The translations under genes and the position numbers were made by a program. Shown piece by piece: positions 3,245 through 52,723 of a stretch of 64,000 bases of DNA (position 1 is the first letter of the stretch; each line of letters begins with the position of its first letter). Source of the DNA: a bacterium (lineage in GTDB: Bacteria > Krumholzibacteriota > Krumholzibacteriia > LZORAL124-64-63); NCBI GenBank assembly GCA_016712675.1, contig JADJQR010000001.1:4077999-4141998 (forward strand), in the 5' to 3' direction. The notes below the pieces were generated by a model. The model did no database searches. It was not told the origin of the DNA and saw nothing but the letters and a program-made list of their open reading frames with translations.

Positions 3245-3293
3245 TTGCGCCGGCGCAAGTCTCACGATTGTGGGATGAGTTGCGCCGGCGCAA
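3245..3293. repeat. Tandem pair of the perfect 14-bp palindrome TTGCGCCGGCGCAA (3245-3258 and 3280-3293), immediately 3' of lpd
   Basis: Read directly in the sequence. The same 14-mer recurs at 24273, 28997, 46035, 50954 and 52710, with a one-mismatch variant at 45799. Confidence 0.8.
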
Positions 3294-3428
3294 TTTCGTG
3301 GGTACGGGCCCGCCAAGTGCGGACATCCACAAACGGCTCGAATCGCTGGGAATGCCATCCAGCAGGCCGGACCTGCAGACTGGATCTGTCTTCAATGCGA
3401 GGCGGCACGTGCGGCGCGATCGGCGGAC

Positions 3429-4673
3429 TCAACCAGTCCCGATCATGCGCAGGGGGATCGCATAGATCCGGTCCCCCAGGGGAACCAGCGTCTCGCCATC
3501 GTACAGCAAAGCTCCGCAACGGAACCCGTCGCCTACGGCGTCCCTCAGGCGCTCGAGTCCGCGGCGGTCCGAATCCCTCAGGGTTGCTGAAGCCTTGACC
3601 TTGATGCCGACGACACGGTTCGGGCCACGTTCCAGGACGAGATCGACTTCCTGCTGGTCCTTGTCACGGTAGTGGGAGAAGCGGACGTTGTGCTCCCAAC
3701 CGCTGGCCTGGCGGCGGAGTTCCTGGACGACGAATGTCTCGAGCAACTGCCCGAGCAGGGTGCGGTCATCGCGAAGGTCCGCAGCCTCGACGCCAAGCAG
3801 CGCACACGCCAGGCCCGTGTCGGTCAGGTGGAGCTTCGGGGTCTTGACCAGGCGCTTCAGCCGATTGGCGTGCCAGGCCGGAAGCTCTTCCACGAGGAAG
3901 ACGTGGCGCAGCAAGGTCAGATAGTCGCCCACGGTCGTGCGATTGACACCGAACGGCCCGGCAATCCCGCTCACGTTGACCAGTCGGGCCGTCTGCCCGG
4001 CTGCGAGTTCCAGCAGACGCGGCAGGATGTCAAGCCGGTGGATGCGGGAGAGATCGCGGACATCGCGCTGGATGATCGCGTCCAGGTAATCGCGAACCCA
4101 GGCCCGCCGGCCTCGCTCGGTGTCGCGCCGCACGACTTCGGGGAATCCCCCCCGCACGATGAGGTTCGCCAGTTCCGGGCCCAGGCGTTCGCTGTGGGCG
4201 ATCTTGAACTCGCCGGCGAAGATCCGCTCCAGGAACTGCGGCTGATGCCGCCCGATCTCCACTTCGCTCAGGGGATGGAGGCGGACGGTCTCCATGCGAC
4301 CGGCAAGAGAATCGGCGACCCGGGGGACGAAGAGCGCGTTCGCCGAACCCGTGAGCAGGAACCGCCCTGGCCGACGATCACGATCGACCGCCTGCTTGAT
4401 GGCGAGGAAGAGCTCGGGGACCCGCTGGACTTCATCGATGGTGACGGGGCCTTCGAGATCGAGCACGAACCCGGCGGGATCCGCCTGGACCGAGGCGAAC
4501 GTCAGTGCATCGTCCAGGGTGAGGTACTGGCGATCCCCGTCCTCGCCGAGGCTCCGGGCAAGCGTCGTCTTGCCGCACTGCCGCGGCCCATGCAGCAGCA
4601 CAACGGGGGAATCGGCGAGAGCCTCACGCAGGCGCGCCCGGACGAGGCGGGGGTATAGTTCGGTTGTCGCCAT
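3429..4673 (-). CDS. AAA+ ATPase, DUF4143/AAA_14 family (ATP-binding protein)
   Basis: Walker A motif GPRQCGKTT, a hhhhDE Walker B motif, and a C-terminal DUF4143-like region. It lies inside the segment bounded by the duplicated lpd 3' end. Confidence 0.8.
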   Translation of the reverse strand: MATTELYPRLVRARLREALADSPVVLLHGPRQCGKTTLARSLGEDGDRQYLTLDDALTFASVQADPAGFVLDLEGPVTIDEVQRVPELFLAIKQAVDRDRRPGRFLLTGSANALFVPRVADSLAGRMETVRLHPLSEVEIGRHQPQFLERIFAGEFKIAHSERLGPELANLIVRGGFPEVVRRDTERGRRAWVRDYLDAIIQRDVRDLSRIHRLDILPRLLELAAGQTARLVNVSGIAGPFGVNRTTVGDYLTLLRHVFLVEELPAWHANRLKRLVKTPKLHLTDTGLACALLGVEAADLRDDRTLLGQLLETFVVQELRRQASGWEHNVRFSHYRDKDQQEVDLVLERGPNRVVGIKVKASATLRDSDRRGLERLRDAVGDGFRCGALLYDGETLVPLGDRIYAIPLRMIGTG

Positions 4674-4696
4674 GCGGCGGATTGTCAGCTAACTCT

Positions 4697-4752
4697 CGTC
4701 CAATTGCAATAATTTATTCGTCCGAATGCCATATATAGTGCGTCCAATTGCA
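4697..4752. promoter_or_regulatory. Three direct repeats CGTCCAATTGCA / CGTCCGAATGCC / CGTCCAATTGCA at 22-bp phasing in an AT-rich region upstream of the DUF4143 ATPase gene
   Basis: Repeats seen at 4697, 4719 and 4741. They are 25-75 bp upstream of the minus-strand start at 4673. The CAATTG core is palindromic. Confidence 0.4.
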
Positions 4753-4785
4753 GGAATAGAGGCGCGGGACCAGAATCTGAGAAGG

Positions 4786-4854
4786 ACGATCCATCCGCAT
4801 CCGACGTTGTCGGAGACGGTGTACGACGCGGCGCAGGGGTTGTTCAAGCCGTAG
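4786..4854 (+). repeat. Direct repeat (about 85% identity) of the lpd 3' terminus (3153-3221), including an in-frame stop codon
   Basis: It encodes IHPHPTLSETVYDAAQGLFKP*, against lpd ...IHPHPTLSETVYDAAQSLFKA*. This resembles a displaced old 3' end (attR-like) left by integration into the 3' end of a protein-coding gene. Confidence 0.75.
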
Positions 4855-50920: not shown

Positions 50921-50953
50921 TGGCCGGGTGAAGGCGATCGTTGGTGAGGACAA

Positions 50954-50967
50954 TTGCGCCGGCGCAA
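50954..50967. repeat. 14-bp palindrome TTGCGCCGGCGCAA, 3' of the GH31 gene
   Basis: Exact match. Confidence 0.8.
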
Positions 50968-51120
50968 GTCCTCGGCACCGCGCTCACCGCGCGACCTGAC
51001 TGCAAGTCGGCCGCGCGCCGCCCGCACGGCACGGCGCAGCCCGCAGGACGAGGCGCCGGCCGCCCTAGGGTCGCCAGGCAACCCGAGACGGCCGGCGCCG
51101 ATGACTACCGACTGTCGGCC

Positions 51121-52524
51121 CTAGTACCCGCTCACGTTCAGGCGACCGCCCGTGATGCACTTGCCTGCCAGCGACGGCGTCGGCACGACGCTGCCAAGGA
51201 TTGCCGCCTTGATGGTCGCCACCGAGGCGCCCGGGTGCGTGGCGCAGTAGAGCGCGACGCCGCCCGTGACGTGCGGGCAGGCCATCGAGGTGCCGCTGTA
51301 CGAGGCGTAGCTCGCCGCTCCGGTCTTGCTCGGGATCGTCGAGTAGATCGACGAACCGGGAGCGCCCAGGTCGACGGTGGTCGCTCCGTAGTTGGAGAAG
51401 CTGGAAACGGCGCCGAGGTTCGTGATCGAGGCCACGGCAATCACGTTCGCGTTGGGATAGCACGATGGGTAGCTGGCCGTGACGTCGGTGTTGATCGTCG
51501 AGTTGCCGGCCGCCGCCACGAACACGATGTTCGCCTGGTTCGAGCGCTCGATGGCGTCCTGCAGGGCCTGCGAGAACGCACCGCCGCCCCAGGAGTTGTT
51601 CGTCGCCACGATGTTCAGGCCATGGCGGCTCTTGAGGTCGGTGAAGTAGTCCAGCGCCAGGATGGCATTGGTCGATGTGCCGCCGCGCTTGCCGAGGAAC
51701 TTGCCCGAGATGATCTGCACGTTCCAGCAGACGCCCGCCACACCGGTGCCGTTGCCGCCCTTGGCACCGATCGTCCCGGCCACGTGCGTGCCGTGGTCGT
51801 CGTACGTGCCGTCGTAGATCGTGTTGTTGTTGCCGTCGAAATCCCAGCCGTGGATGTCGTCGATGTAGCCGTTGCCGTCGTTGTCCCTGCCGTCGACGGG
51901 GTCGTACGGATTGGTCCAGACCTGGGTGGCCAGTTCGGGATGCGTGAACATGATGCCCTCGTCGATCTCACCCACGTAGACGCCGGTCGACCCGGTGTGG
52001 CCGGCCGCCCAGGCCTCGCCGGCCTGGCTGCCGTACACGTTGGCCGGCGTGGTGCCGTCGCCGTACATGCCCCACAGCGAGCCGTTGGTGTAGTACGTGT
52101 CGTTCGACACGGCCTCGTGGTAGTAGCAGTAGTTCGGCTCGGCATACTCGATGCCCGGCTGGCCCGAGAGCGCACGGGCCGCCTCGGCCGGGTCCATCGT
52201 TGTGGTCACGACCGTGAGCCCCTCGCGGTCGCCGGCCTCCTGCATGGCCATCGTGTGGATGCGAGACGCTACCTTGCCCTGGACGGCCGCCAGGGCCGCG
52301 CCGCGGTCAGCCGCCTTCGCGCCGGCGGTGAATTTCACGATCACCTCGCCCTCCACATAGGGCACGCGCGGGCCGTCATAGCCGACGGTCACCACCTCGG
52401 TGGATTCGTCGACGGTCGCCGGGACGGTGCCGACCTCCTGGTTGCAGCCGGCGATCAGGGCGAGCGCGAGAAGCAGCCCGGAGGTCGCGGCAAGCGCGAC
52501 AAGGCGCAGGATCCTGCTGAGCAT
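51121..52524 (-). CDS. Subtilisin-like serine peptidase (S8 family) lipoprotein with an I9 inhibitor propeptide
   Basis: Lipobox LIAGC. Catalytic triad contexts DDHGTHVAGT (His), NNSWGG (Asn) and GTSMACPHVTG (Ser). An Asp context lies upstream. Confidence 0.85.
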   Translation of the reverse strand: MLSRILRLVALAATSGLLLALALIAGCNQEVGTVPATVDESTEVVTVGYDGPRVPYVEGEVIVKFTAGAKAADRGAALAAVQGKVASRIHTMAMQEAGDREGLTVVTTTMDPAEAARALSGQPGIEYAEPNYCYYHEAVSNDTYYTNGSLWGMYGDGTTPANVYGSQAGEAWAAGHTGSTGVYVGEIDEGIMFTHPELATQVWTNPYDPVDGRDNDGNGYIDDIHGWDFDGNNNTIYDGTYDDHGTHVAGTIGAKGGNGTGVAGVCWNVQIISGKFLGKRGGTSTNAILALDYFTDLKSRHGLNIVATNNSWGGGAFSQALQDAIERSNQANIVFVAAAGNSTINTDVTASYPSCYPNANVIAVASITNLGAVSSFSNYGATTVDLGAPGSSIYSTIPSKTGAASYASYSGTSMACPHVTGGVALYCATHPGASVATIKAAILGSVVPTPSLAGKCITGGRLNVSGY

Positions 52525-52709
52525 GGTGAGCCCCTTCCAGTAGCATCGTGGGTGGCTTCCGGGTGGACGCCGACAGACCGGTGGCAGATGGCGAGGATCC
52601 ATCGACCGCGGGCGATTCCACACGATTCCTGGCGAGGAAGTATCAGCCTACAGCAAGGCGGCGATCGACGGCAAGCGCTAATTCTACGCGAATCGAGAAG
52701 GTCGTCGAA

Positions 52710-52723
52710 TTGCGCCGGCGCAA
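52710..52723. repeat. 14-bp palindrome TTGCGCCGGCGCAA, between the S8 peptidase gene and ubiX
   Basis: Exact match. Confidence 0.8.

Follow-up and report, generated by a model that had tools for sequence, protein, structure and literature searches.

The stretch of DNA analysed here, which we call the window, comprises 64,000 nucleotides of contig JADJQR010000001.1 (assembly GCA_016712675.1, positions 4,077,999 to 4,141,998) from a bacterium of the Krumholzibacteriota, and our subject is a short palindrome that recurs along it, TTGCGCCGGCGCAA, hereafter M. Pfam scans place E2 and lpd (467–3221) at the start of the window and reveal an accessory stretch at ~3.4–27.7 kb, which contains DUF4143 ATPases, insertion sequence (IS) elements of the IS110, IS91 and IS3 families, AbiEi/AbiEii, and secreted proteins carrying FlgD_ig and type-IX Por_Secre_tail domains. 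The core region holds genes for a ROK kinase, a bacterioferritin, an HD-GYP protein, a SnoaL ester cyclase, rho, GH31, an S8 peptidase and ubiX/ubiE/ubiD. M is a perfect 14-bp palindrome with seven exact copies, at 3245, 3280, 24273, 28997, 46035, 50954 and 52710. The original prediction had reported these copies, a variant at 45799, and the flanks at 24271 and 45797, all of which we recovered exactly; a scan of the window allowing up to two mismatches returned that variant (TTGCGCCGGCGCGA) and a second one that had been overlooked, GTGCGCCGGCGCAA at 6377, each with a single mismatch. The copies and the element that ends at one of them are as follows.

3245–3258 and 3280–3293, no strand: two exact M copies separated by a 21-nt linker, GTCTCACGATTGTGGGATGAG, 24 nt past the lpd stop, between the convergent lpd and DUF4143 ATPase genes
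6377–6390, no strand: one-mismatch variant GTGCGCCGGCGCAA at a convergent junction, with an IS110-family remnant immediately to its left
~22456–24272, minus strand: IS91-family element (Zn_Tnp_IS91 and Y2_Tnp domains) with an oriIS-like end at ~22456; homology between copies stops at M
24273–24286, no strand: exact M, which forms or abuts the terIS-side (tnpA-upstream) end of the IS91-family element
28997–29010, no strand: exact M in the gap between two convergent genes, for the ROK kinase (stop 28831) and the bacterioferritin-like protein (stop 29084)
45799–45812, no strand: one-mismatch variant TTGCGCCGGCGCGA in the gap between two convergent genes, HD-GYP (stop 45744) and SnoaL (stop 45832)
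46035–46048, minus strand: exact M in frame, within an insertion that is specific to this lineage in the SnoaL-like ester cyclase gene
50954–50967, no strand: exact M 34 nt past the GH31 stop, between the convergent GH31 and S8 peptidase genes
52710–52723, no strand: exact M 48 nt past the ubiX stop (minus strand), abutting a promoter-like −35/−10 upstream of the S8 peptidase gene

The recurrence of M exceeds what composition predicts. Across 100 dinucleotide-preserving shuffles of the window (G+C ~69%) exact M appeared 0 times, against the seven copies observed, and M is the only 14-bp palindrome that is repeated there. As a composition control we used 477 kb of mostly unrelated, GC-rich metagenome contigs, originally gathered for another purpose; these held nine exact copies, of which at least five lie at IS91-like ends. 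Together with the wider sample described below, these data establish that M forms a genuine family of extragenic palindromes, strongly enriched and maintained by selection, with a bias toward the 3′ ends of genes and toward convergent junctions, pairs resembling bacterial interspersed mosaic elements (BIMEs), and associations with ISs.

Copies outside the window were collected by scanning one genome per species for two M copies 5–35 nt apart. This pair scan yielded 51 loci, which total 340 kb and contain 158 exact copies; almost all of the loci come from a few high-GC metagenome-assembled genomes (MAGs): Loclat_bin-10883, bin_118, LJ_bin-5039, LaPlata-b_bin-2430, SRP239054_co1_159 and two Eisenbacteria MAGs. 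The M-bearing relatives go by the labels "uncultured bacterium" or Candidatus Eisenbacteria, and the remoter SnoaL homologues discussed below are labelled Krumholzibacteria; the lineage is probably of the FCB type. Window and related MAG loci together give a set of 165 copies; in ~120 kb of related loci that were not ascertained through M there are eight copies. Matches in Polyangium, Tepidisphaeraceae, Chloroflexi, Anaerolineae, Patescibacteria and a delta-proteobacterial MAG proved to be simple tandem repeats or a phage-like hairpin and were left out of the statistics. Two loci from lower-GC MAGs of other phyla (L142 at 6057–6115 and L167 at 7800–7855) carry an M pair that forms a long hairpin directly after a common ~400-residue protein, 74% identical, which from its sequence we guess may be a phage structural protein; the arrangement may reflect either coincidence or a horizontal origin. 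When viral contigs were scanned with the bare 14-mer, the matches listed were single, chance-like occurrences and were uninformative.

The position of M relative to genes is far from random. Genes were called with a codon-usage and third-codon-position G+C (GC3) model trained on these sequences, which gives 81% coding, and 150 of the 165 copies (~90%) lie outside the gene calls. Classified by neighborhood, 44 copies fall at convergent, 59 at co-directional and 14 at divergent junctions, 33 are near locus ends, and the remaining 15 overlap gene calls, about six being truly internal and the others near doubtful starts or stops. At co-directional junctions 45 of the 59 copies are closer to the upstream stop (median 48 nt), and at convergent junctions the nearest stop is mostly 0–60 nt away. 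Occupancy of gaps of 100–299 nt, with the ascertaining junctions left out, falls from 6/11 (convergent) through 15/59 (co-directional) to 2/19 (divergent). A similar picture emerges from the window and six loci that have public gene calls and were fetched through the SnoaL gene, where a count made by eye finds M at 11 of the 13 convergent junctions of at least 50 nt, eight times exact and three times with one mismatch. The enrichment between genes and the orientation to gene ends that the original prediction had asked after are both present in the window plus related loci. Its description of the copies as mostly intergenic, 3′ of convergent or terminal genes, holds for most of them, the copy at 46035 being the one that departs from it, as it lies in frame inside an open reading frame (ORF). 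The genes bounded by M on both sides are ordinary. At 52710, M lies one base from the start of a promoter-like −35/−10 (TCGACG-16-TAGAAT, minus strand, 52681–52708) that precedes the S8 peptidase gene.

M is also conserved in place. At syntenic junctions across MAGs whose orthologous proteins are mostly 60–95% identical, M is exact but its linkers and flanks have diverged. The pair downstream of lpd, for example, occurs in the window with 35-bp spacing and in L126 and L174 with 25-bp spacing, and the rest of the intergenic DNA is unalignable; M is likewise exact at the orthologous junctions of L161/L169, L146/L157, L130/L165 and L141/L143. The copy within the SnoaL-like ester cyclase ORF (45832–46317, minus strand) is read as ACT TGC GCC GGC GCA AGC, giving T-C-A-G-A-S, and sits in an insertion of 10–25 residues between VVVE and VAVRW. 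This insertion is present in homologues of at least 66% identity and missing from the Krumholzibacteria-type homologues of 139–142 residues. Between genes that are 70–80% identical in DNA, M is exact in six of seven lineages and matches at 13 of 14 positions in the seventh, and the inserted codons around it vary between lineages. In all seven lineages M imposes a T-ending codon and GCA, while elsewhere in the gene T occupies 8% of third positions and GCA makes up 4.5% of Ala codons. The in-gene copy is thus kept against codon bias, which shows purifying selection at the nucleotide level, and its location within an insertion that remoter homologues lack shows that M once reached a new site. Tandem arrays of PTL_trimer-domain genes lie beside the SnoaL locus in L178 (11050–20493, eight in a row) and L174 (8525–11797) and are not found in the window.

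Alignment of the copies defines the extent of the site. Counted outward from M, the first position (+1) holds G in 65% of cases or C in 26%, the second (+2) holds T in 81%, and further out the composition is that of the background. Since conservation ends at +2, the unit is an 18-bp dyad A-S-M-S-T, i.e., A-[C/G]-TTGCGCCGGCGCAA-[G/C]-T. The −1/+1 combinations (C..G 77, G..G 33, C..C 23, G..C 7) show no covariation (odds ratio 0.71, p 0.65); the base at this position is preferred independently in each half-site, which points to sequence recognition and not to stem pairing. A model in which single copies form a long hairpin was dropped, as the left and right flanks are not complementary past the conserved A/T at ±2. 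Exact copies (165) far outnumber those with one mismatch (23) or two (11), a ratio that ascertainment pushed in favor of the exact ones; half of the single changes hit the outermost base, and the loop bases are conserved as strongly as the stem bases. Compensatory changes in 3 of the 11 double variants were not used, all three being in other phyla or in a genic repeat.

Many copies are paired or arrayed. We counted 58 adjacent pairs or array steps, 24 of which have a 34-bp period and a 20-nt linker of the form GTCTCRCGA-N4-CGYGAGAS; the window pair at 3245/3280, whose linker has 21 nt, belongs to this class. Arrays contain up to four copies, the other spacings range over 25–49 bp without helical phasing, and pairs and arrays favor convergent junctions (19/39). 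M equals its own reverse complement, so that the two copies of a pair fold into a stem of 14–21 bp with −31 to −40 kcal/mol, and the 58-nt stretch holding the window pair reaches −39 kcal/mol. Self-complementarity of the linkers was rejected as general evidence for structure, given that it is 46% versus 40% in the control (∼3 sd) and comes mainly from the 34-bp class. A CRISPR reading, suggested by the repeat-and-spacer appearance of the arrays, was rejected on account of the 14–18-nt repeat, the arrays of two to four units and the conserved linkers. The window pair and the adjoining DUF4143 ATPase gene are enclosed by an 80-nt direct repeat of the lpd 3′ end (3151–3230 versus 4784–4863, 88% identical), which looks like an att-type duplication from integration at that end. 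Two such ATPase genes with AAA_14 and DUF4143 domains (3429–4673 and 26288–27679) mark both edges of the IS-rich accessory stretch, and a homologue is the next gene after SnoaL in L172/L173.

Some copies of M touch ISs. The suggestion that M marks boundaries in the IS-rich region is borne out by one exact copy, at 24273, with which an IS91-like element ends on its terIS side, and by one variant, at 6377, which abuts an IS110 remnant. The tnpA-upstream end of IS91-family elements is the terIS, which carries a subterminal palindrome beside the cleavage site (PMC13181058). In the window this end stops exactly at M, and the copy at 24273 behaves as a terIS in that the homology shared by the window, L127, L181, L182 and further metagenome copies begins at M. 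Just inside the same end lies a CCGGCG-N7-8-CGCCGG hairpin that shares the right half of M, and the opposite, oriIS-like end is GGGTTGAAACTCCTATCCGC, which recurs at two truncated copies. The element is present several times in the window, with truncated copies near 8650–9812, 14760–15164 and 17233–17532. Elsewhere, exact M stands at the IS91-like ends of L127/L258, L182, L200, L205, L276 and L272, M with one mismatch at that of L251, M with three mismatches at that of L216 and a partial M at that of L183; M is missing at the ends of L211 and L185, the latter from another host. The outer flanks differ between the IS91-like copies that end at M. M may be the terIS palindrome of the element, or else a site into which the element inserts; a partner M outside several of these ends at pair-like spacing (34, 33–34 and 48 bp) fits insertion. 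With the IS-end pattern in 3 of the 51 pair-ascertained loci, IS ends account for a small minority of M copies. The gene beside the pairs in L138/L150/L164 occupies an orthologous position and encodes an amino-acid permease, not a Y2 transposase, the Y2 match being that of L127. Close to the terIS side of the window element, and distinct from M, an AT-rich long palindrome (TGTGTCTAAATAGTGAACGAAC...GTTCGCTATTTAAACACA, 24430–24478) directly precedes the AbiEi antitoxin gene (24479) and is probably the AbiEi operator.

The second IS association concerns the IS110 family. In L181 an intact element (∼1552–2985) splits M at its center, with CC on both junctions, and L272 preserves the uninterrupted site. 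The window contains a frameshifted remnant (∼4864–6376, start MSSITYVGLDVHK at 5123) that lies directly left of the variant at 6377. This adjacency, taken with the split site in L181 and the intact one in L272, suggests that M is a target of IS110-family (bridge-RNA recombinase) elements. Repetitive extragenic palindromic (REP) sequences are known targets of this IS family.

The resemblance to REP/BIME elements that the original prediction drew is upheld by the dispersed extragenic copies and by the pairs and arrays with a conserved linker. M shares with the REP/BIME elements of Enterobacteria and Pseudomonas its extragenic location, a dispersal of roughly one copy per 10 kb, and its placement at the 3′ ends of genes and in the spaces of convergent gene pairs; it occurs as singles, doublets and short arrays with conserved linkers, its doublets form long hairpins, and it seems to be an IS110-type target. 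It differs in that its core is a short perfect palindrome of 14 bp (18 bp with the flanks), as compared to the imperfect 20–40 nt of a REP, in that it has no GTAG-type asymmetric foot, and in that its exact sequence is kept across lineages in which identity between orthologous proteins is only ~70–90%. No REP-associated tyrosine transposase (RAYT) was found either: a phmmer search with E. coli RayT returned no RayT-like ORF in ∼480 kb, a sample that confers low power without whole genomes, and the sole HUH enzyme linked to M is the IS91-family Y2 transposase. A scan of the window with Rfam 15 gave no match for M and a single match overall, the ALIL pseudoknot of an IS3 element (RF01497, 108 bits) at 18383–18499, just ahead of and overlapping the start of an IS3-family integrase-core ORF (18422–19333). 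As M has no Rfam family and our literature search for the motif found no paper that contains it, the family appears undescribed, as had been supposed.

These observations lead us to the conclusion that the M family is new and REP-like, and that it is neither a chance repeat nor a classical terminator. As to what it does, we hold with moderate confidence that M is the core of a lineage-specific REP/BIME-like family that is selectively maintained and that probably serves as a bidirectional 3′-end signal read by a dimer. In the mechanism we propose, the exact 18-bp dyad, center included, would be recognized, as duplex DNA or as an extruded hairpin, by a protein that is sequence-specific and probably a homodimer, and the site would act as a punctuation signal for both directions at transcript 3′ ends. 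Candidate roles include a barrier to read-through or a point of termination, an insulator before the next promoter, and a topological (gyrase-type) site such as has been proposed for the REP/BIME elements of E. coli; paired copies would add a very stable hairpin of 14–21 bp. M would in addition serve as the terIS-side end of the resident IS91-family element and as a target for the IS110 family, as REPs do for insertion sequences. A narrower version, that M is the site of a dedicated factor that ends or insulates transcription both ways in a lineage without U-tract terminators and is at the same time a substrate of the IS91-family Y2 HUH enzyme, is one that we entertain only tentatively. If it were true, M would be the first REP-like family tied to a Y2 rather than a Y1 (RAYT) enzyme.

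The mobile-element connection may be taken further, to the proposal that M is the REP equivalent of the IS91-family transposase and that its dispersed copies are orphan terIS-type hairpins, spread by this enzyme or by a domesticated relative as RAYT spreads REP/REPIN. The IS91-like copies in this lineage, which carry M or M-linker-M at their tnpA-upstream end with differing outer flanks, fit such an origin, as do the palindrome that terIS carries beside its cleavage site and the in-frame SnoaL copy, which shows that M can reach a new site. We consider the proposal rather unlikely all the same, since most copies are conserved at orthologous positions without sign of recent movement, overwhelmingly away from any IS, and the IS-end pattern is rare among the pair-ascertained loci. 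The association is also open to the converse explanation that the IS took over a signal of the host, e.g., as a block against transcription reading into tnpA, or that it inserts into M, with which the partner M outside the element agrees. We know of no route in IS91 biology that would produce solo terIS copies.

It might instead be argued that M alone is an intrinsic, factor-independent bidirectional terminator of the U-tract-less, I-shaped type. M does lie close after stops and at convergent junctions, its pairs form very stable hairpins, and canonical terminators are lacking in the window: a hairpin-plus-T terminator scan found no excess in 28–64 kb and 0 matches at gene ends. Nevertheless, we think this very unlikely. 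In the direction of transcription the T frequency is ≤0.24 at 19 of the 20 positions downstream of M, the exception being the conserved T at +2, and single copies form a short stem whose flanks show neither complementarity nor covariation. The loop is as conserved as the stem, one copy is conserved mid-gene, and separate long hairpins share junctions with M. The RNA polymerase of mycobacteria is reported to need a U-tract at intrinsic terminators (PMC3993855). The missing T-tract and the weak single-copy hairpin also sustain the earlier view that M is not a classical terminator. Besides REP/BIME, the closest precedent for M is TRIT of Mycobacterium, reported in the RNIE paper (PMC3152330) as a conserved palindromic "terminator" motif for which the authors inferred a binding factor. 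Both are conserved bidirectional palindromes of a high-GC genome with few canonical terminators and are tightly associated with gene termini; the sequences and lineages are unrelated, and the TRIT center lies at about −8 relative to the stop, where M is mostly 0–60 nt downstream.

We give little credence to the idea that M is a DNA uptake signal, comparable to a DNA uptake sequence or uptake signal sequence (DUS/USS), that accumulated by biased uptake and recombination wherever it was tolerated. The excess of exact over mismatched copies would be expected from such a process, albeit ascertainment contributes to it, and M is common to related species and conserved at orthologous sites and, at the DNA level, inside a gene. 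Inverted pairs of the Neisseria DUS downstream of genes are a further parallel. M also resembles HIP1 (GCGATCGC) of cyanobacteria, which like DUS/USS is short, highly iterated, exact, common to related species and conserved in position even within coding sequence. However, those repeats are much denser (∼1 per kb for known DUS/USS, as compared to ∼1 per 9–15 kb for M) and largely intragenic, whereas M is longer, rarer, ∼90% intergenic and concentrated at 3′ ends with the gradient from convergent to divergent junctions described above. No competence genes were seen within the 64-kb window, and to our knowledge uptake sequences are not palindromes.

That M is the operator of a transcription factor controlling a regulon is scarcely tenable: the perfect 14-bp dyad and the outer bases preferred independently on each side fit binding by a dimeric protein, and that part of the original prediction stands, but position largely refutes the operator reading, with M depleted in divergent (promoter) regions and concentrated past stops, and the genes downstream of promoter-side M are functionally heterogeneous, spanning 46 Pfam families of which none recurs meaningfully, and they share no regulator.

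Several points weigh against M as a dimer-read signal at 3′ ends. Most loci were ascertained through M pairs and the gene calls are our own, based on GC3 and codon usage; the figure of ∼300–500 copies per genome is an extrapolation from the sampled density to 4.72 Mb and not a count. The 20 kb around rho-SnoaL in L172/L173 (GCA_016703265.1, GCA_016709775.1) contain the in-gene M only and 0 intergenic copies, from which M density may differ between lineages; another contig of the same genome (L181) does contain M copies. A single copy folds into a hairpin of just 5–7 bp (−4 to −8 kcal/mol), the conserved mid-gene copy argues against strong termination activity, and the separate long GC hairpin that several junctions hold beside M suggests that M may not be the terminator itself. 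Neither an M-binding protein nor a RAYT was identified in the ∼480 kb searched for RAYT and among the genes downstream of promoter-side M. Finally, for TRIT, a comparable motif, later 3′-end mapping showed little overlap with transcript ends and did not confirm termination.

If M is indeed a dimer-read signal of this kind, a single exact 18-bp dyad, found at most convergent junctions and under selection even within a gene, would punctuate the transcription units of an uncultured lineage. This would extend the REP/BIME concept to a distant phylum and provide a testable handle on how transcripts are delimited in high-GC bacteria without U-tract terminators. M would also be a useful marker for annotating gene boundaries and for binning in these MAGs, and its link to IS91-family (Y2 HUH) and IS110-family elements would bear on the origin of REPs and on how insertion sequences choose safe sites.

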